Shown: positions 1-58,388 of the stretch, one piece after another
Numbering within the stretch: position 1 is the stretch's first letter
How the letters are laid out: each line of letters begins with the position of its first letter
Origin: Protoeuglena noctilucae
Lineage: Eukaryota
Assembly (NCBI GenBank): GCA_958009085.1
Contig: OY253681.1
Span: 682,001-746,000 of the forward strand
Length of the DNA: 64,000 nucleotides
Reading direction: 5' to 3'
Notes under the pieces: generated by a model
What the model was told of the DNA's origin: nothing
Database searches by the model: none
What the model saw: the letters and a program-made list of their open reading frames with translations, nothing else
Position numbers and translations under genes: made by a program

Positions 1-3000
1 ACCAAGGGCGTCGACGACGAGGGCGAGCCGGAGTTCACGTTCCGATTCGTGCTGCTAGACAAGGGTGAGGCATGCCATGCCATGCGAGATGCAATGTGCT
101 GCTGGACAAGGGTGAGGCATGCCATGCCATCCCATGCGGGATGAGGATGAGGATGCGACGATGAGGCATGAAGGGTGCAAGCATGCTTTGTGAGGGTCGC
201 AACAGTAGTGCTGGCCCAGTACCGGCTAGCTTGGCAGCAGGCCCTGCGGCGCCGGTAATGATCGCCTCTCGCAGCTGTCCAATGAGCGTCAACCACGCCG
301 CCTTATCAGTCTTCCAAGGTCTCTGGTCGACCCCTGCACTGCGTTGCGTCCTTTGGCGCAGGGTCCAGCCCCGCCCAGGGCGCGGAGAACCACGCGGCCG
401 TGACGCTGATGGTGGACGGGCAGGGCGTGGTGACGGGCGCCACGCAGCACTGCCAGTGCACGACGCCCGCGTTCGGCTTCACGTCCGAAGGCCTCGCGGG
501 GCAGCCGCTGAACAAGGTCGTCCTCATGCGGGGGCCCATGGAGCCCTTCCTGGCCGCGTGGCTCGAGGCCACCCGCGCCCCACCCTTCCAGTCCGAGTCG
601 CAGCTCGTGTCAGTGAGGCACGAGAACGGTTCGATGCGCTTCGGCGTGGCCTACTTCAACGCCGACTACGAGCTGGTCGGCGAGGGCCGGGACGCCAGGC
701 CCGTCGGCGAGCCGTCCCTCTCCGTCACCCTCTACTGCCTCGACTTCCTGCCCGTCGTGCTCGACATGCACGACGACACGACCATCCGCCAGGTGTACGG
801 CTCTGTCTACCTCCTGACCGGGCAGCTCGGCGACAGCTTGGCGGGCCAGCCAGCCGCTGCCGTGGTGCCGCAGCTGTTCCGCCAGGTCGGCAACTCCGCG
901 AATGGGTTGCTCGTGCTCCCGGGCCAGCGCCGCGCCGGCAGCAACCAGCACCGGCACGTGGTGGGGGCCGAGCACTTCTCAGAGACCCTAGCTGGTACCT
1001 TGGGGGTCAAGGTCACGTGCCAGGCGGCCCGCATCCAGGGGACCAAGGATACAGTCATGATGCTGCTGGAGCCCACGGGTCCGTCGCCGGGGCCCGTGCA
1101 GATGCCAGTGGCCCGCGCCTTCATCCAGGGCTATGACGACGTTCACCAGAGGGCGGGTCTGCGCCAGAGAGACGGTGTGCAGGAGGAGGGAGGCAATTGT
1201 GACGATGCCGCTAAGTGTGGCAACCGCACTGTCTGTGACGAGGAGCCCAAGCATGCTGGCGGGCTGACGGCGGCACCGGTCTTGCCGGACGGCGAGTGCA
1301 TGGAGGCTGTGCTGAAGGAATCGGGAATGGAGCACGGCGCGGCGACTGCAGATGGCGACGGGGTGCCTTCCGCTGAGGTGGCGACGCAGCCAGCCGAGCA
1401 CGCGCAGCACGTCGACTCCGCTGCGTACGAGACCCGAGACAACCAGGCAGCGGGAGGTGGAAGCGACGGCCGCGTGCCCAGCAAAGCGCCCAGCGGCGGC
1501 GGGGCTTCGCTGGGCCGCGGCAGCAAGGGCAGCAAGGGCCGCGCGTCGAGCGTCCGGGCCGATGGAGCAGCCGATCGCGAGGGTGCCACCGGCCTTCTCC
1601 GCTCGCTGGACCGGCAGCAGACCGGGAGCGTCCAAGGCGTGGCGATGCCCGGGCCCCCGAGGCCCTCTCAAAAGACCCAGGGCGGCCAGAGCGCGGTGTC
1701 CTGCAACGGCAGCGACGGGGAGGAGACGGGGGCTCGGCAGGGCTTTGCGTTCCAGCGGATGCGCGACTGGGTGGACCACGACGGGGCAATCGAGAGAAAG
1801 GGATTGCCTGCGGTGGAGGAGGGGCTGGAGCCCAAGGCGCTGACGGGTGCCGCCATCACGCGCCTGCAGGAGTCGCTGATGAGCGTCGCCAGGGCCGACC
1901 ACAGCGGTGAGGGTCACAGGGTGGGGAGTGGGGGTGGGCGGGTGGGGTAGGGCGCGTGCTTGAACGGGTGTTGGTGCGGGTGGGGAATGGGTGCGTGCTG
2001 GAGCGGGGGGGGGGGGGGGGGGGGGGTATGGTGCGTGCTTGAATGGGGTCGGGGGGTGAGCTTGTGATAGGGAGTGCGATGGAGAGCGTGACCAGTGATC
2101 CACTCACTGTTGCTGGAGTCGTGGGCTGTAATACAGAAAGTGGCTGATTTGCCGTGACTCGTGCGCGCAGGGTCGTTCCAAGGCGCGGCCCACGAGAGTG
2201 GCCAGCGCACGATGCACGTGCGAGAGGCCACTGCGTCTGTGCCTCGCGACCGGGGTGCCATTCGTGCCAACAGCCTCCTCCTCCACCAGGCCAAGGCAGC
2301 TGCGACCGCCAAGGGCCTCACCGACGCAGCTCAAGTACCCAAGGCTGCTCAGACGCCTAAGCTTGCACACACGCCCCATGCCGCTCCGGATGGGGACGCG
2401 TCACCGGCGTCGTCCGCACCCCTCGGGCTCGCCACGGCGCCCGGCAAGCTCGGGAGTTCCGACGAGAAGACGAATTCGGATGCCGAGGACCACGTCGAGA
2501 GCCAGTCTCACAGCGGTGATGGCGATGGCGCCCTGGGTGGTGACGGGGGGGCGGACGGCGAGGCAGTGGGGGCGACGGGTACGGGACAGGAGGGTAGCGA
2601 TGGACAAGGGCTTTTGCTGGCGAGAAAGAAGAGCGAGGGTTTGTCGGACGGGAAGGGTGGGTCGGAGGATTTGGACCGTAAGAGCAGCGTGAGCGCCAGC
2701 GTGATGAGCGAGGGTGCGGGGGAGGGTGCGGTGACGCATGAGGCCGAGGACGACATGCAGGGGCTGGAACTGCTGGAGCACGAGACGGCGCAGGTGAGGG
2801 GATGTGATGATGTGATGATGCGATGGTGTTGTGGTAAGTCGAGTGGCGCAGGTGACGGGGCGGCTTTGAGATGGGTGGGATGAGTGAGAGGGTGCTGTGT
2901 TCAACGCCTGACATGTATACAGAGGCTGGTGTCTCATCCGCGCACTGTGCTTATCATCGCAGGCCCGCGGCCGCAAGTTCAAGCGCGTCTACGGCATGCT

Positions 3001-6000
3001 GTCGTCGCAAGTGATGACGCGCCCCGTGACCATCGCCCGGCTGACCATGCTGGTCGTCTCCATGGTCATCATCGTCGTGCAGTGCATCGGGTTCAGCCAG
3101 ATCCTCCTCCGCATCGTCAAGCACAACAAGCTCAGCGCCTACGTCGTCCAGTCCGGCACCGCCATCAAGGTGACTGCGGCTGCACTCTGAGAGGCTTCAC
3201 CACCTGCAGAGCGTGGTGTTTGGTGCGTGCATTATTATGGTTATAAATGTAATTATGATAGTTATAGTAACAAAAATCTTAATGACTTATAATGTTGTCA
3301 ATCATGATTGTAGTAACATTTATATTTTTTGCTTTCATCATTCACATTCCCTTTCTGTCCGCAGTACGCGGTGGACATGAAGCGCTACGCCAGGCTCCTG
3401 CAGGGCCTGTCGATGGGCTTCCCGATCCCCGGCTCGTCTTTTGAGAACAACCAGCGGTTGTTCACGCTCTCCACCAACCAGTTCCTCAAGTCCCACAACG
3501 CCCTCTACCACACCGCCTCCATGTTCCAGGACAAGACCTACAAGCCGCAGTTCCAGGTGAGATATCGCTATGATTGCTCATCATGCTTCATGGATACCAG
3601 TACCGTCGGTAATAGTATGGGTGCACTCATGTATAGATATATAATAGTAGTACCAACATCTGGCAGCACCATGCATGGTATTGAGAGCCTTAGCAGCTGC
3701 TTCTAACCGTGGCAACCGACCTCGCCCCTATGTCGTCCCAGGAGCTGTGGCTGCGCATGGACCTGGAGGTGACGGTGCTCACGGCCAGCAGCTACGCGAT
3801 CGGCGGCGTCGACGCGCAGAAGACGACCAATTTATGGGAGTGCGGCAACACGTACGCCAGCTACGGCCTGGAGCTGGCCAAGATGACCGAAGCAGACATC
3901 AGCCAGGGGGACATCGCGCCCCTCGCGTCCTTCCAGTACCTCAGCCGCAACGGGCTCGACATCGTCGCCAACAGGTGACCTGACTGTGACACGGGTGCAT
4001 GAGATGTGACTGTGCGACAGCGACCTTAGCTGTTAGAAAACAACACCCTAGCAGCCTCCACTGGCTTCCACCCGTGCTGTAACTACTGCTGTTTGTAGCA
4101 ACCCGTCCCTTCTCAGTTGTACTAGCACCCTTCACCTCTCCATGGGTGTCACCCCCCATCCCTCTCCCGCCCCACGCAGGTACGAGCAGCTCCTGGCCGT
4201 GCTCATCGCCGCCACCAAGTACAACCTCCTGCAGATCGGCGTGGTGTCCCTCATCTTCCTGGCCCTCAACCTGGGCGTCGTGGTGCCCATCGGCCTGGTT
4301 CTCATCCACCGCGGCATCTCCGCGTCCCTCCGCGTGCGCGCCAGCACCATGGCCATCCTCATCGCGGTGCCGAGGCGGCTGGTGCTCGCCATGTCGCGCC
4401 GACCGGTCAACCTCAAGCTTTTGGAGGATCTGGCGGATGAGGAGCAGGAGGAAGATTCGACAGAAAAGAACACCCAGGCGCAGACGCAGGAGGCGGGGAT
4501 ATCGTCCAAGGCCATGCGGCTGCTGCTGTCGCAGAGGATCGACTACGAGCGCGTCAAGGGTGAGGGAGGCGGTGATACCTAGTACGAGCAGGGGTGGGTA
4601 GTGCTACTCCTTGACAAGTAGTATGTGCCCAGTCACGCCCGATGGGCGAGGGGCGGTGGGGGCAGGGTGGGTGCTTGCACACTGTCGCATCGAAAGTTCG
4701 AGACATCCCCCTCTCGCCTTCCGCAGTGGTGCGCGACCAGGTCATGTCCCGCCAGTCCAAGCAGCGCACGCAGCAGGTGCTGGAGCTGTACATCGTTGGC
4801 CCCTTCCTGCTATGGGCGGCAGTGACGGGGGCTCTGTACGGCGTCACATGGACGCTGCAGTCCAACACGTCCGTCCGCCTGGAGCCGTCCCGCGTCGCGT
4901 ACGTGATGGCGGGATACACGGCCAAGACGCTCGCCAGTGCCACGGATCTGGTCGTTGACACCAGCAACGCCCTGGCCGGATCGCCCTGGGCCCGACAGAC
5001 CGCAGCCACCCGGTGAGGGAGCCGGCTGGGGGGGTGGCTGGGGTGACTGGTTACGGTATATAAAGCTGTGCTGCATCATCGCTGTTAGGGCCGATGAGAT
5101 AAGTAGTTGCGGCGGGGTGAGACTGCCAATGTCGCCCATATGTCTGCCCACGCCCGTGCCCCGTCTCGCCCCCTCCGCGCAGTGCCAGCCTGGCCGCCAA
5201 TCAGGTGGTGGTGCAGAGCGCCGTGGATGCCCTCATCTGGGGCAACAGCACGTTCCTGGGCCAGTACCACGTCCCGGGGGGCACGGTCGTCTTCAACTCA
5301 GTCCTCCGCAACATCTACTTCACCCACCAGTGCTTCAGCGTGAGTGGAGTTGTTCGCGTAAAGATAACGATAATGACGTCGGCAGACACTCTGTCTACCT
5401 TTGAAATTTCTGCTGCCGTCTTTGCGACTCTTGGTGCTGGCGCCCTGACACTGCCACTGCCGTGTGCCTTGCGTGCACTTCTGAAGCTATGGGTGACACC
5501 CATATGAGGCGCGTCGATTGTCCATCAATCATTGCTCCCGCAGACCGTGGCTTGTCTGCCGGACTCGGACCCGCTGTGGCCCTCCGTGGGCCGCGGGTAC
5601 TACGCCCTCATGAGCCGGTTTGACGACATGACAAGCGCGCTCCCGGATGAGCGCGATGTGGACCTGGTGGTCACCAACGTCAGGTGAGATGGCGGATGTA
5701 ATATGCATGTGGTGGTCATCAACGTCAGGTGAGATGGCGAACGTGATGTTGTTCATGCGACTACCCTCGTCATAGTACCACAGACCGACAACACGCCTGA
5801 TGATCACAACACTGGTATCTGTTGCCGCCACAGGTACCAGTTCCTGCAGGCCCAGGGCGACGACACCGTCCGCGTGGCCCAGGAGAAGGTGCAAGTGAAC
5901 GTCAACACCGTCGCGTCCACCATCAACACCATCATCGCCATCCACGTCATCCTGTTCCTGGGCACCGTCGTGTCGGGCGTGTGGTGAGCGAACATGTACA

Positions 6001-6583: not shown

Positions 6584-6817
6584 TGCTCGACAACCGGTTC
6601 ACCTCAGGTCATTCTTGTCCGTTTCCCTGTCATATGTCGTGTCGTGACCCAACGCAAGACCTGCACAGCTACACCCCCACCAACACTGAGAGATACCCCC
6701 GCCATCGCTGGGAGATGAGGGGCTGCATGCACACGTACACCACGCGCTGCCACTGACGCCAGCACGGTGGGACTGCCTGCATTCCCATACCCACGTGCCG
6801 CGTCGCCTTTGTCCCTA

Positions 6818-7006
6818 CCCCCGCCAGCACCGCGGGGCTGTCAGTACACCCACACACTCACCCACCCACCCAAGCGCGCCTTCATCGCCACCTGGTGATG
6901 CACAAGCGCCGCTGCTGCACTGTCACTGCCGTACCAGCTCTCAGCCTTCAGGACTGTCTCAGACATGCACCACTACGCATGTCGAGGCGCGGTGACCTAG
7001 AGAGGC

Positions 7007-7039
<33 letters not shown>

Positions 7040-7136
7040 TAGGGGTGGAGAGAGAGCACCCAGTAGTTTACTAATCTATCTAATCGCGAGCCGTTTTCCC
7101 TGTTCACCCAAACGACTGCTCCGGCGGCCACCCGGT
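6818..7136 (+). repeat. Left copy of a degenerate direct repeat flanking the F-box/ankyrin locus, interrupted by a ~145-bp insert
   Basis: atcgccacctggtgatgcacaagcgcc (6884-6910) and agcacccagtag...atcgcgagccgttttccctgttcacccaaacgactgctccggcggcca (7055-7130) align with 9422-9512. Confidence 0.8.
7001..7056. repeat. Imperfect (GA)n microsatellite tract
   Basis: agaggctgagagagagagagagagagaaagagagagagataggggtggagagagag is seen directly. Confidence 0.9.
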
Positions 7137-9382: not shown

Positions 9383-9520
9383 CACCTGCCAGCTCTGCGG
9401 AACAGCTACCCACGCTCCGTTATCGCCACCCGGCGATGCACTAGCACCCAGTGGTCTACCCTGATCGCGGGTCGTTTTCCCTGTTTTACCCAAGCAACTG
9501 CTCTGGCGGCCATCGTCGGT
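9383..9520 (+). repeat. Right copy of the degenerate direct repeat flanking the F-box/ankyrin locus
   Basis: atcgccacccggcgatgcactagcacccagtggtctaccctgatcgcgggtcgttttccctgttttacccaagcaactgctctggcggcca aligns with the left copy at roughly 80% identity by eye. Confidence 0.8.
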
Positions 9521-9873: not shown

Positions 9874-12800
9874 ACCATGGCAGGGCCGGAGGTTCCAACG
9901 CCGTCGGCTGGGCGCGCGCGGCCGGTGTCGTGCCTCTGCGGCGACGCGGACGGGCACGGACGCCGCGCGAGTGAGGCCGGAGGAGAACATCGCTGAGTTG
10001 CTTCAATCGCTCGATGAGCTGAACTCGCTCGAGGCGTCCGTCGATTCAATGGACGTCGCCACGCTTCTGGGTGGCGATGCGATAGCGCCTGCAGTCGCGC
10101 GACGCAGCGTTGACGCCGTCAACCTGGCGGATGCAATTCAGGCGGCGTCTGCGGACACCTCGCCGCGCTTCATCTCTCCGCTCGCCCCCAACTCGAGCCT
10201 CAGCGGCGCACGGTCGGCACAGCCGCTCGCCTCGGCCCCGCTGCTGCTCTTCTTGCCGGGTGAGTGCAGGAACCGCGTCCACTCGCTTCAAACCTGAAAG
10301 CCAACACCACGGTAACCGCATCTCCGCGCCCCTTTTCAGGCATCGACGGCACGTGCATCACGCTCACGCGCCAGCTCCCCGGCCTGCAACTCCTGTTCGA
10401 CGTGCGGGCGCTGATCATGCCGCCTGGCGACCGCACGTCGTTTCGAGAGCTGGTGCGGCTGACGGCGGACTTCCTTCGTCAGGAGCGGGACACGGTGAAC
10501 GACCCACTGCGGCCCATCTACGTCATGGGGGAGTCGTTCGGTGCGGTGCTGGCGGTGGCGGTGGCCCTGGATTGCCCCGACGTCGTCAGCCGGGTCGTGC
10601 TGGTGAGATGCCGCCGCTCAACGGAGGCGCGGCTTGGCAGGTGGCTTCGCGGATCATGCGACTGCGGCCCCCGTGTGCTGTGCTCACAAACCCGTTTGTG
10701 TTCATGGCACCGTTACCAGATAGTTGATACGCACTTCTCGCTTCACAGATCAACCCGGCGACCAGCTTTGACCGCACCCCCTGGGCTGCGCTGGGCCCGG
10801 TGCTGTCCGCGCTGCCGCAGCCCCTTTACGACACGCTGCCCTACGCCCTGGCTCCCCTCCTGGGCAACCCCCTCAACATCGCCGCCTTCCGCACGAGCTT
10901 GCGTGGCACGGGCGTCAGTGGGGTGCTGAGGGACCCGGGGAGGGCGGTGGAGGCCCTGGGGGAGCTGAGGGACGCGATGGTGGAGCTGCTGCCCAGCATG
11001 GGGTGAGTTGACAGGGTGGGGAGTGGGGCGTCATGGTACATGGTGGTGGGTGAGAGTGAGAGTGGTGGGTGGGTGAGGGAGTGTTGCAAATGCTGCCCAG
11101 CATGGGGTGAGTTGACGGGGTGGGGAGTGGGTCAGGGAGTTGTGGTGATGAGTGAGGGGGTGTTGCAGGTGTGGGTGAGGGAGTCTGGCGTTGCTGCCGA
11201 GCATGGGGTGAGAGTGAGGGCGGTGGGTGGGGCGTTATAACACATGGTAGCGGGTGAGAAGAACATTGGCAGTTGCTGCTCAGCAATCGTGGCGTTGAAT
11301 GCATACGTAGGACTTGTGAGTGTCCCTCCATTGCAGTGGCCTAAAGGACATCCTGCTGCCCGCCACGCTCGCTTACCGCATCGCTCTTCTGGGTCAAGGC
11401 AGCGACTACCTGCGGGGGCGCCTGGGGCAGGTGCAGCAGCGGACGCTCGTGCTGTGCGGCGCCGACGACGCCCTGCTGCCCAGCAAAGAGGAGGCCAGGT
11501 GAGGGATTGGTGGTTCTTTTTCTAACCTCTGGCAGGTGACGGGCTATGGGATATGACAGGCATATGACGGTCCCGAAGTCAACCGTACGGGCACTGTTGG
11601 GAACCTGCCTGCCTGTCAGTTTCTCATGCAACAGGTTGTCTCCCCCTTCTGCCCCGCACAGTCGCCTGGAGCGTTTGCTGCCACGCGCACGCGCCAAGGT
11701 GCTGCCCAACTTGACGCACGCCATGTTACTGGAGGCGCCCTTCGATGTGGCCAAGGAGATTTTGGAGGAGGGGTTCTACGTGCCCAGGAGGAAGCTCAGC
11801 GCGGGGCCGCAGCAGACCACGGGTGAGGAGCAGGGTGGGTGAGGGAGTGGGTGATGTGTGGCGGCTGTGGTTGTGGGGTGCAGGCTGTGACGCGCTCAAT
11901 CTACTGGCTGTCAGCGATGTCAGCGATGACTGCATGCATGGGCTCGGAACGTATAATCGATATCCGCGTCGTCGCCCGGTGCGTGCGCAGGGAGCGGTTC
12001 TGGCGCCTGCACTGCCAGTGTCCCCTTCACCCCCCCGTACGGGCAAGCCGCGCCGCTGGACGTGCCCTCGCTGCGGGAGCTGGAGCGAGACGCGGAGAAG
12101 AGCAGCCTGGAATTGCTGAGGCGCCTGACGTCCCCCGTCTTTGTGTCGACCGGTCCGGGGGGGCGTAGGGAGTTAGGGTTGGGGCAGGTGCCGGACGTAC
12201 GGCCTATCCTGGTGAGAGGGAGATGGGGAGCGTAGGGTGTTGGGGAGCGTGAGCTGGGCTGTCGGTTAGGGTGTGCAAGAAGTGGTGGCCAGTCCTCGTC
12301 ACGTTGTCGCACGTAGCATCAACGCTCACCCGCACGGTCCCGCCCCCACCGCCGCAGTTCGGGGGCAACCACCAGGCCCCCGCCATCGACATGGGTCCCC
12401 TCATAGCACGTTTCCTGGAGGACCGCGGCACGTTGCTGCGTGGAATGGCGCACCCTCTCATATTCGGTCAGACGCGGGAGCGGTGGGAGGGCATGGCGGA
12501 TGACGAACTGCTGGAGATGGAGTTTCGGAAACGATACCGAAGCACGGGGGGCAGGCGTGACGGGGAGGGGAACGGCGGGGGCGGGGGCGGTGGTATCGGT
12601 GGGCTGTTCTCTACATACGGGGCGGTGCCTGTGAGCTCGACGGCGTTTTCGAAGTTGGTGCGGAACGGGGAGGCCGTGCTGCTCTATCCCGGGGGAGCGA
12701 GGTGAGGGGGACGGGGGAGGGGCGGGTAGTGGGGTGGGGTGAGGCCATGTGTCATGTGTGTGTGAGGGGAGATGAGGGGTGAGTGGGGCTGGGCTGAGGT

Positions 12801-25044: not shown

Positions 25045-28000
25045 TCACCGCGCGGCCCAGGGCAGAGGGCCCACGGGCGGCACGCTGCTCTCCTCCACCA
25101 CCGCGCTCGTTTCTGACAGCACACCCTTGATGACTCCGAAGGCGAAGCTCTGCCAACTGGCGGGCTGGCGGAGCTGCGGGTGGGGACGAGGCAGAGGGTT
25201 GGGGAGGTGAGGAAAGCAGGGATGGGGAGGGTCAACAGTTAAGCAGAGTTGGGAACAGTAAGCTTACCCACACCCCTCATCTGCATGCCCTCACTCACCC
25301 CCCGTCACATGTCCCTCACCTGCTGATCCACTCCCCTCACCCGCATACCCCCCCACTCACGCCCCATCACCCCCACCCCATGCCAACCCCATGTAATGCC
25401 TAAGTCTCACCTGCGCCTCCATCGACGTCTCGAGCACAATCACCGCAATCTGCTTCGCCAGCGACGGCCAGTCCACCCACAGGTTCCCCGCCTTCCCCGT
25501 CGCCCGCACTTGAAGCAGCATCCCGCGCCCGCGCCCCGCCCCCGCCCCTGCTGCCCCAGCCTCCCCCTCTGTCCCCGCCGGCCTGCTCCGGATAACGTGG
25601 AGGGTCTCTAGGGTATCCAATGGGATCCCCAGCGTCGCGTCCACTGCCATGGAGTAAGGGTCGATGGTGCCCCACACGGCGATGTGCACGCCGGGGTCGC
25701 CCTGTGTGGGAGCGGTGGTGGGGGCATGGGGGTGAGACTGTGTGATGGGCGTATGTGGTGAGGCTATGTGATGAGATAAGGTCTTAAAATGAAAGGATGT
25801 CATATGATGGGGCATGGGATGAGGCTATATGATGAGGTGAGGTGATGTAATGATAGGAGGTCATATGATGGGGCGTGAGATGAGACTGTGAGGTAGGACC
25901 GTCTCATGATGGCCAATGGTGAAAGCCGCACGATCAGACAGCGAGCGGCACGTCTGCACAAGCCAAGCGCATCTCAATCAAGCAATTATCTCCCACAAAG
26001 GGGAGATACACTCACCATGAGCAGCATGTCGGACCGCCTGAGCCGCCACCGCCCCCCCGTCTCGATGTCGAGGGTCGTGGTTCCCAGCCACGCACGGAGC
26101 TCAAACGAGGGGCCCAGGAGCGCGTCGTCCGGGACCTGCGATGAATCATATAAATACGCGAACGATGACGGGAATTAAACCACGGACTTGGCGAAAGCAC
26201 GTCGGGGCATGACACCGGACAAGGGCGGGCATCGACATGGTGAAATCCAATGGCGTGCGTTTCTCGACTAATCAATAAGGCCAGTCCTGCTTTCTGTTAG
26301 TTCACCTTGAGCACCGAGAGGAGTCTCTTCAGCAGCTCGCTGCGTACCAGCTTCAGCTTGGCGGGGTGCAGGGTCACTGCGGGAGGGGGTTTGACGTTAT
26401 CAGTGAGTAGGGTCGATGGACAGCTACAACGGCAGCATTCTCCATCCCTTCATTCACCCTCTCTCACAGCACCCGCCCTCACCCGCAGTGCTTTCCATGA
26501 CTGCACCCACTCTCCCAATCCCTGCACTACTCACCCGCCGTGCTCTCCAGTGCAGCCACCCTCTGTACCATCACCTACCCCCACACTGCTGTCTTATATC
26601 ACCACCCTCACCCGCCGTGCTCTCCAGTGCGGGCAGCACGCCGTCCTTCGGCGCCACAGTGACGGTCAATGGCCCGCCGTCCGCCACAGAGGCCACTTCT
26701 CTGAGAATGGGGTGCAGGCGAGCCAGGCCGGACTGGGCCAGGGCCTGGGGCAGAGAGGGGGAGGGATGGGGTGAGGTGGATGGGTGAGTGGATGCATGGC
26801 AGACTGGGCAAGGGCATAGGGCAGAGAAGGCGAGCGATGGGGTGGGTGCAGTTGAGCGTAGGCTACCCCTCACCCACGTCACATGCGTTTGGATCTCTCA
26901 GCCACCCTGCCACCCTCAGTATCACTGATCTTGCGTCTTCCAACAATACTCTAACACACCCCAGCTATCCCACCCCTCACCGGCGTGACGTGTGCCTGCA
27001 CCTCGACCGGCCGCGACAGGTACACCCTGGCCTGCCGGGAGGCGTCCTGCACGGCCGCCCCCGTCAGCCGCACATGCACCGTCTCGCTCTTCAGGGAGAG
27101 CGACACGGGGGTCCAGCCGCCGGCCCAGCCACGGGCGTCGGTCGATTGGATGACGCGGGAACACTCGCGGAAGGGGGAGACCTGAGTGGGAGAGGCGACA
27201 GTAAGGCAGTGGGAACACTCGCGGAAGGGGGACACCTGGATGGGTCAAGAGGGGAAGCTGGGCTGTGGGGATGGGAGTGGAACGGAAGGGTGACACACGC
27301 TTGGTTAGAAGGGAAAGCATGGCAGCGGGAATGGCGATCGTGTGGTGTGCACATGCGCACAGCGCTGACCAGTGCCCTTAGGGTGGCCAAGCCCTTCCAG
27401 ACCCACTCACAAGACAGGTCAACTAAGCGCTGCGTCTGCGTCTCCCAATGCAAGCCCAAGCCCAGCCCACCTTGGATGTCGCTGAGCTCGAGTGCTCTGC
27501 AGTCCCCACTTCCACACCATCCACCCCTCGTGTTGGACGTCCGACACGGGACACATCCCCATCCCCCCTCACGCCCCCCGCACCCCCACCATCCCCAGCT
27601 CCCCCACTGCTGCTAGGAACGTCCTCACTCCCCTCTGTCCCCGCACGCCCCCCCGGCCGCCCCTCTGGCTCAGGCTGCAGGCCGCCACCCACCACACTCT
27701 CCCCCCGCTCGTCTCTGCCACGTGCACCCGACCCTCCCCTCTCCGTCCCCACCTCCCCCGCACCGCCCTCCTTCGCTAACCGCCCGTCTGGTGACCTCTC
27801 TGCACCGCTCAGCTGCCCAACGCCACCCCCCTCGGCATCTCTCCTTTCCCCTGAACTCGACACCCCTGCCCCTTGCTCACCCCCATCCCCACTCCCATCC
27901 CTCGCCTCGACCCCACCGCCCGCATCCCCCTTCCCCACCCCACTTGACCCCACCTGCCCCTCACCCCCCGCCCCTCCCGCCTCATCCACCCCCCGGCCCA

Positions 28001-40528: not shown

Positions 40529-40533
40529 TGTAA
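40529..40533 (+). terminator. Candidate TGTAA polyadenylation signal of the kinase gene
   Basis: TGTAA lies about 0.5 kb after the stop; it is the established chlorophyte poly(A) signal. Confidence 0.4.
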
Positions 40534-41228
40534 TGGACGCCCCTCGCTTGCCTCGTCGCCCCCTACTCCCGCGCGCCCGCCGATGCGCATGCCCCCCGCA
40601 TGCGGCAATGCCCCACAGCGGCGAGAGCTGTCGGGTTTGCCCGCTAGGCCCCCGCGACCCTGTCACGCCCTTGTATTGTGCTAGCACCACGGGCGGTGGT
40701 GCCTGCGCCGCCCCGGATGTCTGAGAGCATTTCTAACACCCCCCCTTACCCCACGCGCTCCAGTCGGGGGGCGGGACGATAGGGGAGCTAGCCAGCAAGC
40801 TCTGCGGCACTCTCCCTTCCTCGTCTGCCCCCTCGGTCCTCTGGGGATGCTAGGCCTGTGCAACCGTGCGCACGCCCTTGATCCCCTTGATGACGGTACC
40901 CTCTTTCCCTGTCGCCTCGTGACCATATGATAGAGTTGAAGAGCCATTGACGCCCTTAGTGCGGCACTGCACACCTGACAGACCCCGCCGGAGGTCGAGA
41001 CTGGCACGGGCCTGGCTTAGGCTTCTGATCGAAAGCTGCTGCCCTGGCCTCAAAGCGGCAGCGTAAAGATACCAGAAGACCCCGTCAGAGTCACCAGACC
41101 TTGCGCGTCTTCTCTGCGTCACTGTGTCTGTCGCCTGCCCGCAGCTAGAGTCCGCCGGGCCTCGCACGTGTTTCGTGAGTCACCTATTGCTCGTGGATGA
41201 TGCGTCCGCGTGCGCTGCGCATGGCACG

Positions 41229-47200: not shown

Positions 47201-49894
47201 AGACTGAGAAGACGCTCTGGGGTCACGAGAGGCTGCGGTGTTTCCATGCCGTGACGCGTGCCACTCGCTAGGTGTTGCGTGCTGATGGGAGCACGCGGTG
47301 GGCGTCACTTATACGACCATGTGACGGTGCATCTCCTATCAAACCTTGTATCGCCCTGCCTGTCCCTGCAGATGGGAGCACGCGGTGGACGTCACCCACA
47401 CGACCTTCGCCCTCCTGCGCATGGCCACGTCCTTCCGCAAGCGACATCTGTCCCGGGCGCAGCTGTTTGCGCTGCTCGTGTCGGCCGTGGCGCACGACAT
47501 GGGGCACCGCGGGGTGAGTGGTTGAGTGGGGGGAGGGTTGCTGGTATCTCTAACATGGGGCACCGCGGGGTGAGTGGTTGAGTGGGGGGAGGGTTGCTGG
47601 TATCTCTAACATGGGGCACCGCGGGGTGAGTGGTGGAGTGGGGGAAGGGTGGCCTGTTGATTGTGACATGGCACATGGGGTGTGAGTGGGGGAAGGGTTG
47701 CTTGTACCTCTAACACGGTGCAGTCATCAGCGGGCTTGGTGCGACCTCACCCTCACTTCGACTGCACACAGGTCAGCAACGCCCACCTGGTCAAGACGGG
47801 GGACATTCTGGCGCTCACCTACAACGACGCCAGCCCCCAGGCGAGGCCGGCAACGATGCGCACATGAGTCAGCTGTTGTTGCCCCTCTGCACGGCAACAC
47901 ACTGGGCCAACTCACTCCTACTCAATAACCCCCTCACTTTCCTTGCTGAGCTCCACGCCGTTTGCCAGGACGGGAGCCCTAGCGCAATGCAACCGTCAAG
48001 CCTACTCGCAACGTCGTTTGTTGCCCCTCGCAACACCGCTCCCCTCTCTCCAACCCCTCAGGAGAACATGCACGTGTCCTCTCTGTTCCAGCTGTGCCAG
48101 AAAGTGCCAGAGGCGGACGTGTTCGAGTGCCTGCCGCCCGACGCCTACACCGAGGTCCGCAAGCTCATGATCGACCTCATCCTCGACACGGACATGGCCG
48201 CCCACTTCCACCGGTGAGCAGTTACTATGTAATATATAAATGCACTCTAGTCATGTAATGGCTCATCTCATGATCGACCTCATCCTTGACACGGACATGG
48301 CCGCCCACTTCCACCGGTGATTGCTTAATAGAGGGGATGCATTTCAATGACAAAGGCAGGTGTGGCTGTGCAGGCTTTGCTGGGCAAGCATTCCTGTGCA
48401 CTTGTCTCGCTCCCGTCTCCCACCCTCACCTCACCCCACCTCGCACCCCTCACCCGTCTCTCCCCACCTCACCCCCCACCCCCCACCACACAGGGTGGCG
48501 GAGATGGAGGTGGTGCTGGGCAAGGCCGAGGCGGCAGGCGAGGGGTCGTCCAGCGAGTCCGAGAGCGGCGGGCGTCGCGGCGCAGTGGCACCCGCACCCA
48601 CAGCGCCCCGCATGACCCCCGAGGACGTGCGGTGCGTGCTCTTGGGACTGCTCCACGCCGCGGACCTGGGCAACTGCGTCAAGCCCATCCACATCCACGC
48701 GTCCTGGTCGGTGCAAGTCATCCAGGAGGTGAGGGGAGAGCGAGAGCGTGACTGTCATGTGCGTCGCTCCAACGCTCATGGCATCCAATCGTTGATCGAA
48801 CCCATGTCTTTCAGACAGCCAATCCAGATGCTCATGGCATTCACCGGTTGATCGGACTGTTAATCGACTGCATGTCTTTCTAGACACCCCCATGCACATG
48901 CTCATGTCGTTCCATCGTCGATCGACTCCACGTCTCCCTCCCCCGCAGTTCTTCAACGAGGCTCAGATCCAGAAGGAGCTGGGGATGGAGCCCGTGCCCT
49001 TCATGGACCCCGAGAAGTGCTTCGTCCCAACATCGCAGATGGACTTCCTTGAGTTCATCGCCAGGCCCCTGGTGAGAAGAGAGCGCTGCTTAGGGGTAGA
49101 TATTGGACGGCACGATGGCGACGGCACCTCACCTCTGACTCCCCATTATAGAGACTTGATCGCACTGCCCGGGTTGCCTCTGCCTCTGCCCCGGTGGGTG
49201 CATGTGGTATACTGCAGTCAGCAGTTCTCTTGCATGATGACGTGCCTCCTCGCTTCCTCATTCACAGTTCATGGCCCTCGTCCGGCTCGTGCCGGAGCTC
49301 TTGCCCCTGCTGGACAACATTCAGAGGAACTTCCGGCTCTGGGCCGCGCTGGGCGTCGAGGCGCGGGAGCCCGGGGACCCGGCGCTCGAGATCCTCGTGT
49401 CGGGGAGCGCCGAGTTCTTCAAGGCGGCGCGGGCGGCGGCGCGGGCGGCCGCCAAGGCCAACAGCAAGGGGTCGATCGGAGCCATGCTGACACCGCCCTA
49501 CGCGCGCACCCAGAGCGCCAAGCAGGCCTCCGCCAAGGGCGCCGTCACGGACGGGCCCAGTTCCGTGTTCTCCGGAGCCACGCTGAGCGCCGCGGAGGGC
49601 GGGGGCGCGGGGACGAAGCGGTCGGCTCTGATGCAGCAGGCGAGCGCAGTGCCGACGCCGGCGACCGGAACCGCTCCGCGCTCGGCGCTCCCGCCTGAGC
49701 ATCGTCTCTAAGCCATTCTGCAGGTGCTGGAGCTGGCGCCGGTGGTGAACGACAAGGTCGAGGCGGTGCTCGCCAAGAGCATCGAGGACCTGAGCGGCAT
49801 GGGCCTCCGCGAACCGCCCCCCTCCGTGACCCCCGGTGTTCTGGCGGACAAGGTGGCTGCATTCCTGGTTAAGACGGACCCCTCCCAGTGCTGA
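41229..49894 (+). CDS. Membrane-bound class I 3',5'-cyclic nucleotide phosphodiesterase, paralog 1 (long disordered N-terminus, 6-TM module, PDEase domain)
   Basis: Catalytic motifs are NPYHR|WEHAVDV, AHDMGHRG|VSN, YNDASPQ|ENMH, ILDTDMAAH, LLHAADLGN, QE|FF and SQMDFLEFIARPL. Six hydrophobic segments lie at 44714-46300. The Ser/Pro/Gly-rich exons at 41229-44207 can join in frame through the acceptor at 44462, which is less certain. Confidence 0.9.
47498..47650 (+). repeat. 56-bp tandem repeat spanning an exon end and splice donor (about 3 copies plus a decayed fourth)
   Basis: catggggcaccgcggg|gtgagtggttgagtggggggagggttgctggtatctctaa occurs at 47498, 47554 and 47610. Confidence 0.93.
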
Positions 49895-50247
49895 TGGTGC
49901 CAATACCACCAGCACGGCACACACCCGCGTCGCCCGTGTAGCCAGCCCAGCAGTCCATGTCTGGCGGCGCATGGAGAGGCATGGAGAGGTCGTGCGTGTG
50001 GTATCTGCTCTTTAGCGAACATCATCGTAGACTTCAGCGCCCATTCCGTGACGAGCAATTAAACCGATTTTCTGACTCGTCGTACCGGTCGAACCGACCT
50101 CTCGACGCCATCTTCTGCGGCGGGCCGCAACATCACAGTAGCTCCTACACTCCTTACCGCCCAAAAAGTGGATGGCACTCCCACGGCGGCGCACGAGTGT
50201 GTTCGCATGTGTGGGCATCGCCCGCCGGCTGAGGATGTCGGGGCGCG

Positions 50248-53200: not shown

Positions 53201-56200
53201 GGTGGTTGCGGCGACGGTGGTGGGCGCTTGCCTTGACCCGTGCCCTCGTTGCCTCAGCACCTGACTGTCATCGTCACTCTCGCTGCCACCCCCACTACCA
53301 TCCCCACTGCCACCCTCACTGCCACCCTTGTTACCACCCCCATTGCCACCCCTATCACCCCTATCACCCCCACCCCCCCAGTTCCGAGATAGACGGTGCT
53401 AACTCCCAGACCGTCACCCCTTTGGACTCGACCAGTGCCGGCCTCTCCAGCTTCGTGACCGCCAGCCCCGATGGGTGGTGGGCGGTGGACTGCCTGGCCA
53501 TGTCGAGGGAGACGAGCTTCGATTTTGTGGTCGAGATGTTCCGATACATGAAGTGAGTGGGATATATATGCTGATCTGTCATGTGGGGATGGATGTTCTG
53601 ATACATGGAGTGAGAGCTGGCATGAGTTGTAGTAATTATTTTGTGTTGTGCAGTGAGCAGTGGTGCCGCTCGTCGGTCGTGAGCAGTGCTCTCTGTCTGC
53701 CACTTGACCCCAACCCCGAAACCCATTCCTTCGTCCCCTCTCTCTCCCCACCACCCCAAGCCTGATCACCTGCACCGCTCTCCCGCTCACCACCAACCCC
53801 AGCCCCTCTCCCCTCTCCATGCATCCAACCCCATCCCCTCCCTCCCCACCCCCCAGGCTCATCCAGGAGGTCCCAAAAGCCGCCACCAAGGACCCCGGGG
53901 AGCCCTCCCGCCCCTGCCGCGTGTCCGTGGCCGAGCAGGCCATGAGGAGCGGCAGCGGGGAGGAGGGGGTGGCGCGGGTGCGGGAGAAGACGCTCAGGCG
54001 GTTCCTCGCAGAGTGCGAGGCGCGGTATTTGCAGAACCCGTATCACAGGTGACACTTGTGATGTAGCAAGGGCGATGGTTGGGGTGTGACGGTACCTGCA
54101 GAACCCCTATCAAAGGTGAGGTGTGCTCCTGGCAGAGTGCGAGGCGCGGTACCTGCAGAACCCGTGCCACAGGTGAGCATGCGAGGGTGGTAGTGAGGGG
54201 AGGGAGGGCGGTAGCTGTGTGGTGGGTGGCGATTGCCGGAGTGGTGCGTGCTGGTAGCTAGTATACAACCATGGGTGCAGCTGTGAGGGCTGGATGAGGT
54301 AGAGTGAAGGTTAGAGTCTGGTGCTCACTTACCAGTCCATCACATCGCCTTCCACTGCTAACCCTGTCTCTCTGCAGATGGGAGCACGCGGTGGACGTGA
54401 CCTTCTCGACCATGCAGCTGCTCCACCGCGCCGAGCGGTTCGTGCAACAGCACCTGTCCCCCGTGGACGTGCTCGCGTTGATGGTGGCCAGCATCGCGCA
54501 CGACGTGGGGCACCGGGGGCTGTCGAATGGGTTCCTGGTCAAGACCAGGGACGTGCTGGCCATGACCTACAACGACGCAAGCCCGCAGGTGACTTGTAAG
54601 AGAGGGGGGGATGAGAGGTGGTTGATTGTGGTTGGTGGAAGGCGAATGACGCAAGCCCACAGGTGAGTGACCTGTGGGGGATGGGGAGAGTTGGGGGCCG
54701 GCGGATGATGTGTCATATTATTGCTATCTCCACACTGTGCCACTCATTGCCCCTTCCACTCTCCTCGTCATCTGCTCACACTGACAACACACACACAGTC
54801 ACACTCGCATCCACTGATTTCGTTCCCCCATCTCAGGAGAAGCTCCACGCGTCCACGCTGTTCGTGATATGCTCGAGCACACACTCAATTACAATCATCC
54901 ACCCCATTCCCTTTTCTCAGGAGAAGCTCCACGCGTCTACCCTCTTCGTGATATGCTCGAGCACCCCCGAGGCCAACGTCTTTGAGCTGCTGAGCCCCGA
55001 GCAGTTCACCCACGCACGCAAGCTCATAATCGACGCCATCCTCGACACGGACATGGCGTGCCACTTCTCCAGGTGACTATATGTGATTGTGATTAATTGG
55101 TGTTTATATTAGTGACCAGTTGCTATCTATGCTCATTGTCGACACACACATGGCACCGACTGACCAGTCAGTCGCAGCTCGACTTCCAATAAGAACTGAC
55201 CTCTCCTATTCTCACCCCGCTGCTCCCCAGGCTCGCGGCATTGAGAATTACAATAACAACTAACACACCCACCCCTCATCCCTTCCCACCTCCAGGCTGG
55301 CTGCGTTGGAGGTGGTGGTGAAGGACCACGCCACGCAGACATGGGAGGCCGTGAGAGTGGCGCAGGCAGACGCAAAGACGGGACCGCACGGGCAGAGCAA
55401 CCTGGCAAATGGCGTGGGGAGTCGTGGGGTGGGGGGCGCGGTGGAGAGGTGAGGGGGGGGGAGGGAGGGGTTGGGCAGTGGGGGTCGTGGATAGGAGGCG
55501 AGAGAGGAATGGGGACGGTTACTGTTGAGTGCGGACATGCCATGGTTGTCACCCCATGTGCTGCTGATCACACGCGACGCTCACCTCATTCGCTCCGACC
55601 GATCCCATCACACGTGCAACGCTCAGCCCATGTATGCACGTCCTTTATCCCCCATCCCCACCCTCCACCCCAACCACACATTGCTTGCATCACCCCCACC
55701 CCCTCCCCCCAACCCCCCCCCCCAGTTTCTGCCCCCCCGAGGTGCGCTCTATCCTGCTCGGCCTCCTGCACGCCGCGGACCTGGGCAACAGCTTCAAGCC
55801 CGTGCACCTGCACGCCAAGTGGGCGGTGCAAGTGTCGCAGGAGTTCTTCCGAGAGGGGGAGGAGCTGAGGGTGAGGTGGTATGTGGATGTAATAATGATT
55901 GATATGGCTCAGCAAGGGTGGCGGTGAGGGTGGTGGCATGTGGGGTGGTTGCGAGAGGGGGAGGAGCTGAGGGTGAGGTGGTATGTGGATGTAATAATGA
56001 TTGATATGGCTCAGCAAGGGTGGCGGTGAGGGTGGTGGCATGTGGGGTGGTTGCGAGAGGGGGAGGAGCTGAGGGTGAGGTGGTATGTGGATGTAATAAT
56101 GATTGATATGGCTCAGCAAGGGTGGCGGTGAGGGTGGTGGCATGTGGGGTGGTTGCGAGAGGGGGAGGAGCTGAGGGTGAGGTGGTATGTGGATGTAATA

Positions 56201-58388
56201 ATGATTGATATGGCTCAGCAAGGGTGGCGGTGAGGGTGGTGGCATGTGGGGTGGTTGCGAGAGGGGGAGGAGCTGAGGGTGAGGTGGTATGTGGATGTAA
56301 TAATGATTGATATGGCTCAGCAAGGGTGGCGGTGAGGGTGGTGGCATGTGGGGTGGTTGCGAGAGGGGGAGGAGCTGAGGGTGAGGTGGTATGTGGATGT
56401 AATAATGATTGATATGGCTCAGCAAGGGTGGCGGTGAGGGTGGTGGCATGTGGGGTGGTTGCGAGAGGGGGAGGAGCTGAGGGTGAGGGTGGTTGGTTGT
56501 TTGATGACAGATGACTGAAGATGAGAGGTCGACTTGTGTTTGTTATAATCCACCTCACCTCACCTCACCTGCCCCCGCAGAAGATCGGTGTCTCCCCCAT
56601 CCCCCTGTTCGACGAAAGCAAGTGCTACCTGCCACACTCCCAGATGGTGAGCAGATGCTAGCTCTTTCAATGCTTGTATCATAACTTACACAGTCGCAAC
56701 CAACACCAAGTGCATATGTGAGACATGTTGTTACTACATGTATCATGCATTAGTATTCATACTTACGCACTTCTCCCCATCACTCCCCACCACTCCCAGG
56801 AGTTCCTGGACTTCATCGCCCGCCCGCTCTTCGTGGCCCTCTCGCGCCTGGTCCCCGAGCTGACACCGACCGTCCTGGCGCTCCGCCAGAACTTCCAGTT
56901 TTGGGCGATGATGGCCGTCGCGGACAAACAGGCGCTGGGATACGAGGACAAACCGGTGCCGCTCACGCGACAGGCGGGGCTGCTGGGGCGGGGGATGGGA
57001 ATGGGAATGGGGAGGAGGCGGCGGGGGGAATCGAACGTCGCACCTCTCCCCGAGGCTAGCGGGGGCTCTGTCATAGGGTGGCTGCGGCCGCAGGGGCGGC
57101 GAGAGAGCCGCAAAGTGGGTGGCGGGGAGGACGGGGTGGCGGTGACGGAGCTGTCGATGACGCACGGCAGCACGGGTGGGGGTGGGGGTGGGAATGGGCC
57201 GCGCACCAGTCGCTTAGCGTGGGGGCCAGCGGTGGGGGATGGGGTGGGGAGGAGGGAGGCGAGCGTGGATGCACACGGTGGGGGTGCGGGTGCGGGTGCG
57301 GGTGGGAGGAAGAGTGGGAACTATGGCAGGGGTGTGGCGGGGCCTGGGGGAGCAGTGCCGGGAGGGCGGAGGCGGGGCAGCGTGGATGGGCGGTCGTTGG
57401 ATTTGGTGAGGGGGATGCTGGGGCGGGCGCCGCGGAAGGTTTCTGGCACGATGCGTCCCTCCGGGCTGGGACTGGGCCCCTCGCAGCGGCAGCTGCACGT
57501 GGGGTGGGATCACGGGAGGGGTGGGGGTGTCAAGGGCGACGGTGCGGTACCTGAGTCGGGGTCGGCGGAGCTGTGGCGGATTGGCATGGAGCTGCAGGGC
57601 GTGGAGAGCCGGGCGTGGGCGGCAATTGTGCTGGGGAGGAGCTTGCGGGGTCTGCCGCCGTTCGAGGCCGCGCTGGCGTGCCAGGCGAGTTTGGGGGGTG
57701 AATGGGGTGGGTGGGTAGAGTTGGTGGAGTTGGTTTTGATTACTAAGCTGCAATGGGTTGCTCTGCGCGCTTCACGACCCCTCTGCTGCCCCGTCACACC
57801 TCGCACCCCTGCAAACACCGCTGTCACCTCTCGCTCCCCTCACACCCCTCACACGCCTCACACCCCTCCCCTGACCTCCTCACCCCTCTATCCACCCTCG
57901 CCCCCCCCTCAGCTCGTCGATGAAAGGAAGGTCTCTGACTTCCCCCATGTGGTCCCCAGCGAAAGCGTGGCCCCTGAGATAGTGGCACTGGTCGACGCGC
58001 TCATGGGCGTGGGGGTGCGGGACGTGCCACAGGTGAATGGGGTGTATTTAGTACTATTGCATTTAGTATTATCTGTATCTACTGAACACCAGTGGATACA
58101 TGGATGTATGGTCGTGTGATTGTGGGGGTGCGGGACGTGCCACAGGTGAATGGGGTGTATTTAGTGCTATCTGTTGCAACAGCAGTGGACCAGATAGTGG
58201 ATATGAGCGGGTGTGACTTTGCCAGGGCAGCGCGTGCGTAACACTTCATGACACTCTAAGCGTCACAGAGAGTGTCACCTCGACACCCTTCCCCGTCATC
58301 CCTGTGTCCACAGAAGGTGCTGGACGAGAGCCAGCTGGACCGCATGGACCAATTCAACAAGAAAGCAGAGGCACCACCCACGGCGTGA
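50248..58388 (+). CDS. Membrane-bound class I 3',5'-cyclic nucleotide phosphodiesterase, paralog 2 (6-TM module + PDEase domain)
   Basis: Catalytic motifs are NPYHR|WEHAVDV, AHDVGHRGLSN, YNDASPQ|EKLH, ILDTDMACH, LLHAADLGN, SQEFFREGEELR|KIG and SQM|EFLDFIARPL. The TM exons align with paralog 1 (VLASPWWFL vs VLSSVCWFA; LAEAAVQRWMHWAGYVD vs LADTAVQRACHAYGYVD; ITDETQ in both). The start codon is tentative. Confidence 0.9.
55851..56488 (+). repeat. 102-bp tandem array (6 full copies + partial) starting in the last 20 nt of an exon and carrying the splice donor in each copy
   Basis: The unit gagagggggaggagctgagg|gtgaggtggtatgtggatgtaataatgattgatatggctcagcaagggtggcggtgagggtggtggcatgtggggtggttgc starts at 55851, 55953, 56055, 56157, 56259, 56361 and 56463. 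Confidence 0.97.

Follow-up and report, generated by a model that had tools for sequence, protein, structure and literature searches.

Why are the ends of exons, together with their splice sites, repeated in the introns beside them? In the window, that is, the whole 64-kb stretch of DNA analysed here, roughly a tenth of the introns contain a nearby copy of the adjoining exon end and splice site, hereafter called an echo. The host is an intron-rich, GC-rich marine green alga. A scan for local direct repeats gave 21 loci, comprising 11 that straddle a donor, 4 that straddle an acceptor, 5 that are purely non-coding and 1 that is internal to an exon; the last, the sole exon-internal repeat surviving, has an 18-bp unit and is in frame. 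An ungapped repeat scan yielded 43 filtered matches in the real sequence, as against 0 to 3 at scores of 14-15 in block-shuffled copies of the window and zero at scores of 16 or more in three of three shuffles. All 13 loci listed in the initial annotation were found by repeat scans and in a print of the sequence, at the coordinates given there or a few bases away. Its statement that short duplications straddle splice sites in at least five genes was borne out, and two further loci were added, a donor echo at 53535/53592 and an acceptor echo at 26731/26802.

The echoes were confirmed as real short duplications at true junctions. In our gene models, each first copy lies where coding potential stops at a GT donor or starts after an AG, and RNA contigs additionally gave the junctions at 53553, 54049, 54589 and 54921. 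Both the gene models and the donor scoring matrix were derived within this analysis, which concerns one 64-kb window flagged for its echo pattern. Raw-read support had been called for at the outset; what was obtained is that DNA contigs of metagenome run X5, whose independence from the assembly is probable but not certain, reproduce several of the echo copies. These contigs carry 47497-47582, 48188-48317, 48291-54211 and 54187-55438 without a single differing letter. The comparison with DNA and RNA contigs covered 35841-55840, and the 102-bp array described below and the loci beyond that stretch lie outside it.

At four donor loci, the copies form plain arrays, following one another head to tail without foreign sequence in between (coordinates are on the plus strand unless stated otherwise). 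The 56-bp array at 47497..47712 contains 2.8-4 units according to TRF and the repeat scan, the unit comprising 17 nt of exon end (HDMGHRG motif) and a donor, with GTs lying at 47514 (real), 47570, 47626 and 47682. Its units 1 and 2 are 100% identical, unit 3 is a mosaic and unit 4 is degenerate; a metagenome unitig spans 47497-47582. The 102-bp array at 55850-56493 has 6.3 copies at 99%, each with 21 nt of exon end and GTGAGG, and seven donor GTs from 55871 (real) to 56483. The remaining two arrays have two units each. At 49-83/96-130 (47 bp), 34 of 35 positions are identical, and the exon end and GTGAGG are copied such that the GT at 65 recurs at 112, 47 nt downstream; both donors score 6.7. 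In the array starting at 5656 (45 bp), the copies 5665-5694/5710-5739 agree at 29 of 30 positions with a 45-nt period, and splicing from the echo donor at 5729 instead of the real GT at 5684 would extend the exon by 45 nt and introduce an in-frame stop.

The other seven donor loci have the order copy, spacer, copy, with a spacer that is weakly alike or unlike the following sequence. Three copies occur at 10987/11091/11192 (span 10987..11212; spacing 104 and 101 nt), with GTs at 11003 (real), 11107 and 11208; outside the copied piece, units 1 and 2 retain a weak resemblance (P 0.012). Three copies were also found by the repeat scans on the minus strand at 26607/26530/26476 (span 26476..26635), where the donor Gs at 26611 (real), 26534 and 26482 all begin GTGAG and score 7.9, 7.0 and 7.5. 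At 48164-48217/48267-48320, 53 of 54 positions are identical, and 50 nt of exon plus GTGA recur 103 nt downstream. This locus is bridged by the metagenome contig 48188-48317, and its 49-nt spacer has no likeness to the post-echo sequence (P 0.94) or to sequence elsewhere in the window. The newly added pair 53535/53592 (span 53535..53614) matches at 21 of 23 positions with a spacing of 57 nt, the real donor being at 53553. In phosphodiesterase gene 2, three copies lie at 54003/54090/54127 (span 54003..54177), with GTs at 54049 (real, score 6.2), 54116 (8.4) and 54173 (8.1); the echoes read TACCTG where the present exon has the synonymous TATTTG. The pair 54574/54648 (span 54574..54666; 18 of 19 identical, spacing 74 nt) places an echo donor at 54663 (score 8.9) behind the real donor at 54589 (6.4). 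Finally, at 58009/58122 (span 58009..58170; 48 of 49 identical, spacing 113 nt), 24 nt of exon and 25 nt of intron are copied, and the remaining unit is alike in indel-separated blocks only (P 0.012). The whole unit is thus recognisable at 10987 and 58009, whereas no likeness of the spacer to the following sequence was found at 48164, 54003 and 53535 or in the terminal unit of the 55850 array. In 8 of 13 such comparisons, the sequence between the copies was unlike that after the echo and the copied piece was 90-100% identical. The arrays themselves are mosaic and polar, as in minisatellites: similarity is highest among the copies close to the exon, and distant copies are degenerate.

Four loci straddle acceptors. 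Two are on the minus strand: the added pair 26731/26802 (span 26731..26844; spacing 71 nt), in which the upstream copy has no AG (CAG to TAT), and 27157/27211 (span 27157..27244; spacing 54 nt), in which the AG is present and splicing to it would extend the reading frame by 54 nt with no stop codon. In phosphodiesterase gene 1, the pair 47280/47367 (span 47280..47405; spacing 87 nt) precedes an exon starting at 47372, and CTG in the upstream copy replaces the CAG of the real site, so that the AG is lost. The pair 54831/54915 (span 54831..54964; spacing 84 nt) shares its intron with the 54574 donor echo. Its exon starts at 54921, which is the acceptor used in RNA, and the upstream copy retains an AG whose use would insert 84 in-frame nt free of stop codons.

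The view that each echo creates a decoy splice site therefore held on the donor side, where all of about 20 echo donors keep GT, and held for only two of the four acceptor echoes. The decoys are strong. With our matrix, echo donors scored 4.1-8.9 and real donors 6.2-8.7; echo and real site scored equally at 49, 5665, 47497, 55850 and 58009, and the echo scored higher at 54003 and 54574. Nevertheless, at the four loci covered by the RNA joints listed, splicing ignores the echoes and uses the outermost sites. In the RNA contigs, which come from two samples of a single study, the first donor is chosen at 53553 (joint 53552>53857), 54049 (54045>54375, cut +3) and 54589 (54585>54918, cut +3) and the last acceptor at 54921, even though at 54049 and 54589 the real donors score 6.2-6.4 and their echoes 8.1-8.9. 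These joints represent 3 of the 11 donor loci, and contigs drop rare isoforms. Furthermore, use of an echo donor would bring a stop codon in 11 and a frameshift in 2 of the 13 tested, which indicates that the echoes are not alternative coding ends. The suggestion that echoes seed new splice sites was thus not borne out at these four loci, and the accompanying suggestion that they lengthen introns was supported: the median length is 300 nt for echo-bearing introns and 177 nt for the other 101 introns (P 5e-4).

A comparable arrangement has been described in human F7, in which the first unit of a 37-bp VNTR in intron 7 spans the exon 7 donor and the most upstream site alone is reported to be used (PMC1557585). 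The downstream pseudo-donors are reportedly ignored even where their pairing with U1 is equal or better (Borensztajn et al. 2006, PMC1557585). Our best reading, held with about even confidence, is that the echoes may be a natural analogue of this VNTR. The F7 type is represented by the arrays at 47497 and 55850, a head-to-tail first unit with exon end and real donor is present at 47497, 55850, 5656 and 49, and the RNA at 54049 and 54589 agrees. Unlike the single human locus, which was studied with minigenes, the alga has 11 donor loci in 64 kb, many of them in the order copy, spacer, copy, and acceptor-side counterparts as well; a scanning-type selection of sites in the alga is putative.

Are junctions preferred over other positions? 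Under uniform placement in all non-coding intervals (n=20), 3.5 donor, 3.5 acceptor and 13.0 internal loci were expected and 11, 4 and 5 were observed; for introns only (n=18), the expectation was 4.1, 4.1 and 9.9 and the observation 11, 4 and 3. The probability of at least 11 donor loci was 1e-4 to 4e-4. Duplications are thus commoner at donors than uniform placement predicts. Part of this excess is a matter of visibility. From a reading of the aligned copies, 5 of the 11 donor loci would have been found by their intron-derived part alone, which implies about 2.2-fold better detectability of junction units; the P value rises to 0.003-0.007 if exon-derived sequence is 2- to 2.2-fold more detectable and to 0.014-0.024 at 3-fold. 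A general hot zone at intron starts is no explanation, since tandem repeats of short period are distributed evenly over the length of introns (11, 11, 7, 11 and 14 in five bins; KS P 0.46). Survival bias, the alternative raised by the initial annotation, together with detection bias removes much of the donor excess, and a duplication process aimed at junctions is putative. These data, from a single window chosen for the pattern, suggest but do not prove that duplications originate preferentially at junctions.

With moderate confidence, we interpret the echoes as ordinary small tandem duplications with minisatellite turnover, filtered by selection and detectability. Small tandem duplications with units of 45-124 bp would arise in short introns and then undergo turnover of the minisatellite type. 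A unit spanning a donor would do no damage when it arises, since splicing still takes the first donor and the added copy becomes intron; an exon-only unit would usually break the frame and be lost; and a unit spanning an acceptor would be kept only if its upstream AG is destroyed or the added stretch is in frame. An intron-only unit, in fast-changing and often low-complexity sequence, would soon cease to be recognisable. The exon-derived half of a junction unit, anchored by the selected copy, would stay recognisable, and junction echoes would therefore pile up among the visible cases. Indeed, the acceptor echoes fit such a filter, and the exon-internal survivor is in frame. We infer that the units were born by staggered-break fill-in or slippage. 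Small tandem duplications are reported to result from fill-in at breaks with 3' overhangs (Schimmel et al. 2021, PMC8355091), carried out by CST-guided Pol alpha-primase, and this signature is described as abundant in the genomes of species (PMC8355091). The process gives head-to-tail copies of tens of bp to about 100 bp and would be a ready birth mechanism for 47497, 5656 and 49; it offers no reason for breaks at junctions and does not predict the unrelated spacers at 48164 and 54003. The filters may explain the entire donor excess, but, as quantified above, they leave part of it. Further points stand against ordinary duplication. The junction should fall anywhere in the unit, and the exon part clusters instead; neutral decay of whole units predicts at most about a 2-fold difference within a unit, against 53 of 54 identical positions beside a spacer with P 0.94 at 48164; and the five youngest events (47497, 55850, 48164, 58009 and 49) are all donor events.

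Another reading, which we consider possible though rather doubtful, is a junction-focused mutation process. Breaks or template switches would favour the exon-intron transition, perhaps where transcription or splicing complexes stall or where a strongly G-skewed intron starts, and repair would re-copy a patch from about 20 nt upstream of the donor. The donor excess is 3- to 4-fold over the uniform nulls and stays nominally significant after the 2- to 3-fold correction for detectability. At every one of the 11 donor loci, the exon share of the unit stays under 0.5 (mean 0.30, expected 0.54). In 9 of 11, including four of the five youngest, the exon part is 15-26 nt whatever the unit length of 45-124 bp (P 1e-5), but this range was picked after the data had been seen and its lower bound is set by detectability. 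The order of copy, unrelated spacer and copy at several loci resembles a repair scar with filler; several clean tandem arrays, on the other hand, need no special process, and acceptor-side echoes exist at four loci. The link to G/C-skew boundaries proposed at the outset was not borne out: G skew at +6..+65 is stronger in echo-bearing introns (0.56 vs 0.15, P 0.007), but this is a circular association, the echoes being themselves copies of the G-rich start of the intron, and the rise in skew coincides with the donor and not with -20. RNA-templated repair, likewise proposed at the outset, is conjectural. Literature searches found no known mechanism or precedent, and the case depends on our own gene models in one window selected for the pattern.

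Active maintenance of the copies, by gene conversion from the selected exon copy or by selection for useful intronic U1-binding sites, appears improbable. It would suit the 90-100% identity of the patch next to an unalignable adjoining unit in the 8 of 13 comparisons, the matches of 27/27 in the terminal old unit of the 102-bp array and 35/36 in unit 3 of the 56-bp array, and the GT kept by every echo donor, several of them better than the real site. Conversion, however, should homogenise the intron-derived part too, and the echoes at 54003 keep the ancestral TACCTG while the exon moved to TATTTG, so no conversion has occurred there since that change. Selection could act through TGTAA, which we take to be the green-algal poly(A) signal. 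Between the real donor and its last echo, the density of this motif is 15 times that in the remaining intron sequence (5 vs 7 sites in 1111 vs 23359 nt; P 0.007 against other permutations of the same letters), but it was noticed by eye before testing, occurs in 4 of the 11 donor loci only and is not depleted across introns (11 seen, 10 expected).

That the spacers are inserted mobile or captured DNA, introner-like or filler, with the copies as long target-site duplications, is very improbable: AT-rich spacers between copies (e.g. 49 nt at 48164 and 68 nt at 55850) and ATGTAAT in several of them (12 window matches vs 0.86 expected, 6 from one array) favour it, but AT-rich patches are common in introns with or without an echo (27 patches), the spacers have no significant similarity to one another or across the window except low-complexity G-rich matches, the duplicated lengths of 19 to 54 nt are unlike transposase footprints, and the paralogous phosphodiesterase gene has introns at 47198 and 47841 that correspond to those at 54049 and 54589, which are therefore older than the echoes. 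Introners, transposons that generate introns and derive a splice site from the target-site duplication (Gozashti et al. 2022, PMC9860276), likewise duplicate sequence adjacent to splice sites and enlarge the intron content of marine algae, but they form dispersed near-identical families with fixed short target duplications. A blastn self-comparison detected no dispersed repeat family in the 64-kb window; 6 of 22 self-hits were dispersed, five reflecting paralogy between the two phosphodiesterase genes and one an unrelated pair, 7055/9443.

Gao and Lynch reportedly surveyed internal gene duplication in 2009. In a related model, tandem duplication of an exonic AG/GT is proposed to create a new intron as long as the duplicated segment (2010, PMC2891723). 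Here too, splice signals are duplicated, the transcript is rescued by splicing and the extra stretch has premature stops. In the alga, by contrast, both the duplicated junction and the intron that grows existed beforehand, the echo lies within the intron and not at its 3' end, and two echo-bearing introns predate the split of the paralogues. An origin as duplicated exon segments does not fit these introns, the echoes lying 45-124 nt from the donor inside longer introns.

Returning to the idea that the junction itself is fragile, a more specific form of it, which we regard as unlikely, is that a break tied to the 5' splice site, triggered for example by a polymerase or spliceosome stalling at the exon-intron transition, is repaired by repeatedly re-copying a footprint-sized patch into the adjacent intron. 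The patch would begin about 20 nt before the donor and end 5-25 nt beyond it. In a bolder variant, the extra U1 sites would silence nearby TGTAA poly(A) signals and the copies would be kept for that reason. If such break repair does operate, donor junctions would be hotspots of intron growth and would carry a standing stock of decoy donors.

A repeat search of the window detected 21 families of direct repeats lying at most 300 nt apart, and 12 of these included either a GTGAG-type donor preceded by the end of an exon or an acceptor followed by the start of one. Such a nearby intron copy of an exon edge and its splice site is called an echo here, and each locus is named by the coordinate of its first copy. 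Using our own ungapped scan (offsets 15-400, score +1/-2, low-complexity filter), 43 matches were obtained at a score of at least 14, versus 0-3 in three block-shuffled windows, none of which reached 16. At a score of at least 16, the matches clustered into 21 loci: 11 straddling a donor, 4 straddling an acceptor, 5 wholly non-coding, and 1 exon-internal. The initial annotation had listed echoes at 13 loci, all of which were found in the repeat scans, and two more were added, a donor echo at 53535/53592 and a minus-strand acceptor echo at 26731/26802. About 11 of the 113 predicted introns carried a donor echo. A more sensitive gapped scan gave six extra marginal internal matches (scores 13-15) and left the clear loci 49 and 5665 unlisted; hence, it served as a sensitivity check only. 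All counts refer to these 64 kb of one contig.

Other local repeats were also observed. The sole exon-internal one at a score of at least 16 was an 18-bp unit repeated 3.9 times in frame in a predicted exon (21056-21127). Non-coding tandem repeats touching no junction were located between two genes (33014-33124, 37 bp × 2.9) and in a minus-strand intron (25743-25884, 61 bp × 2.3). Outside the phosphodiesterase paralogy, the only dispersed repeat was a 77-nt pair with 77% identity near the ankyrin-repeat gene (7055-7130 and 9443-9512).

The window has a G+C content of 59-72% and contains short exons and introns at high density, and RNA contigs from marine metatranscriptomes contained GT..AG joints of 110-332 nt. 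Exons were predicted by dynamic programming with a gene finder that used splice matrices and a codon log-odds model and had been trained on the RNA-supported pieces; 11 of the 12 RNA-supported introns were recovered, and 9 of 12 after retraining. The resulting gene models are our own predictions, in which only GT donors are allowed, adjacent genes are merged, and at least one exon end is mis-set. Pfam matches of the predicted exons included ankyrin repeats, an alpha/beta hydrolase, a Band 7 protein, a chlorophyll a/b-binding protein, a protein kinase, and two tandem paralogous class I cyclic-nucleotide phosphodiesterases at about 46-49 kb (gene 1) and 51-57 kb (gene 2). The predicted chlorophyll-binding exon was similar to green-lineage clusters, which may be taken as a lead and not as proof. 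Four runs carrying a single species label, as well as marine metagenomes, contained nearly the complete window. When a 344-aa exon query of gene 1 was searched against JGI metagenome contigs, 78 pattern matches were obtained and none was confirmed; the organism is apparently not represented in those contigs.

The mis-set exon was predicted at 47772-47789 in gene 1, and paralogy with gene 2 places its end at about 47840, where GCGAGG follows. The intron at 47841-48061 is probably of the GC-AG type, as judged from this paralogy; the gene finder allowed GT donors only.

At each echo locus, the first copy coincided exactly with a predicted exon end or start. Furthermore, contigs of RNA runs X9, X10, and X12 contained the joints 53552>53857, 54045>54375, and 54585>54918 (the latter two with a cut of +3), indicating use of the first donor at 53553, 54049, and 54589 and of the last acceptor at 54921. 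At these four junctions, therefore, the echoes lie within the excised intron. These findings cover 15 of the 45 RNA joints, those of gene 1 being outside these 15. As for the copies themselves, contigs of metagenome run X5 matched 47497-47582, 48188-48317, 48291-54211, and 54187-55438 without differing letters; the second of these bridged copy, spacer, and copy, and the contig breaks were located where shared 31-mers are expected. The assembly probably did not derive from X5. We conclude that the echoes are genuine, are tolerated, and occur very frequently in this region. In DNA (X5) and RNA (X9 and X10) contigs, we also observed 51089 joined backward to 41930, with two additional letters; an extra tandem copy, in the natural population, of the approximately 9.2-kb unit that holds gene 1 would fit this joint, as would a repeat-induced contig join.

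All echo donors kept GT. At five loci, their matrix score was equal to that of the real donor; it was higher than the real one at 54003, a three-copy echo of gene 2 (8.4 and 8.1 versus 6.2), and at 54574 (8.9 versus 6.4). For the 13 echo donors that were tested, use would lead to a stop in 11 and to a frameshift in 2. The acceptor echoes differed from this, two (47280 and 26802) having lost the AG and two (54837 and 27235) retaining it; use of the latter would add 84 and 54 nt, respectively, in frame and stop-free. At 54003, the echoes hold TACCTG, the state of the paralogue, and the exon now reads TATTTG, a synonymous change, so that this locus is old.

TGTAA, which we take to be a green-algal poly(A) signal, was found 7-41 nt past the real donor in 4 of the 11 donor-echo loci (5684-5728, 48214-48316, 54589-54662, and 55871-55972). 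Between the real and the last echo donor there were 5 sites in 1111 nt, whereas the remaining intron sequence had 7 in 23359 nt (P 0.007 against same-letter permutations, for a motif spotted by eye and tested afterwards). No general depletion of TGTAA was seen in the introns of the window.

The median length of echo-bearing introns was 300 nt, versus 177 nt for the others (P 5e-4), a difference of about 120 nt. The initial annotation had proposed that such copies lengthen introns; indeed, echoes are one concrete route of lengthening, and one intron is mostly array. The intron at 47514-47771, after the HDMGHRG motif of gene 1, is about two-thirds 56-bp echo array. It is missing in gene 2, where 54378-54588 is a single RNA-supported exon, and by this comparison it was gained or lost between the tandem paralogues. 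Introns across the window were polar, the first third being G-rich (median repeat skew +0.68) and the last third C-rich (-0.92). Many had an AT-rich patch in the middle, for example 3219-3354, 55074-55130, and 56714-56767, and 27 patches of at most 30% G+C occurred in the window, whose mean is about 65%.

Random placement of repeat pairs predicts 2.7 loci at donors, 2.6 at acceptors, and 14.8 internal, versus 11, 4, and 5 observed. This null is too harsh if a duplicated unit survives in part only. When whole units were placed at random, the expectations were 3.5, 3.5, and 13.0 in all non-coding sequence or 4.1, 4.1, and 9.9 in introns only, and the probability of at least 11 donor loci was 1e-4 to 4e-4. 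By our own reading of the copies, 5 of the 11 donor loci could be found from the intron-derived part alone, so that units spanning a junction are about 2.2-fold easier to detect. With 2- to 2.2-fold weighting the donor tail probability became 0.003-0.007, and with 3-fold weighting 0.014-0.024; all these probabilities make the excess look stronger than it is, because the window was flagged for this very pattern. The donor-to-acceptor ratio of 11:4 in the window was not significant alone (P 0.12).

We consider it about an even chance that the echoes represent ordinary small duplication and minisatellite turnover, viewed through filters of selection and detection. Two observations are outside the predictions of such filters in their plain form. 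First, the placement of the junction in the unit was uneven: the exon share was below 0.5 in all 11 donor loci, with a mean of 0.30 versus 0.54 expected, and in 9 of 11 the exon part measured 15-26 nt across all unit lengths, a range picked post hoc whose lower edge is the detection limit. A birth process genuinely focused on junctions is a tentative reading that we regard as rather unlikely. The initial annotation had suggested, as possible processes, repair or template switching at G/C-skew boundaries or RNA-templated repair. Echo-bearing introns did show stronger G skew past the donor, but the comparison is confounded, as echoes re-copy the G-rich intron start. An early onset of G skew did not account for the unit boundary at about -20, since skew rose at the donor in both sets, and no hot zone was present at intron starts, short-period tandem repeats (TRF) being evenly distributed over the introns. 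The skew-boundary hotspot is thus left without independent support.

Second, conservation was far higher in the copied patch than in the remainder of the unit. The spacer was unlike the post-echo sequence in 8 of 13 comparisons, in which the patch was 90-100% identical; likeness was significant in two (10987 and 58009; P 0.012) and borderline in three. At 58009, the remaining blocks were nearly identical where alignable and differed by indels, which suggests that intron sequence turns over quickly by indels. At 48164, the patch was identical at 53 of 54 positions and the spacer was unalignable, so that indel turnover is insufficient as an explanation there. That conversion or selection maintains the patches seems improbable to us. 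Insertion-type origins or artefact take the small remaining probability; spacers matched only their own arrays and G-rich low-complexity sequence in the window, and no dispersed element family was found there.

Among described cases, the closest to these echoes is the VNTR in intron 7 of human F7. The first repeat unit of this VNTR extends across the donor, and the most upstream site alone is selected (PMC1557585). Fill-in at staggered breaks is a known source of small tandem duplications of the size seen here (PMC8355091). Our literature search, with subscription journals outside its scope, yielded no genome-scale description of duplications across splice junctions in an alga. If the donor excess fails for young or polymorphic events, the window would be a clear example of survival and detection bias in the reading of raw sequence; if it holds for them, an as yet undescribed mutational hotspot with a link to transcription or splicing would be indicated. 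If echoes occur genome-wide, they would provide hundreds of natural F7 experiments, with equal or stronger donors behind the real one and with acceptor counterparts, and RNA-seq would show directly by which rules a green alga with short introns chooses its splice sites.
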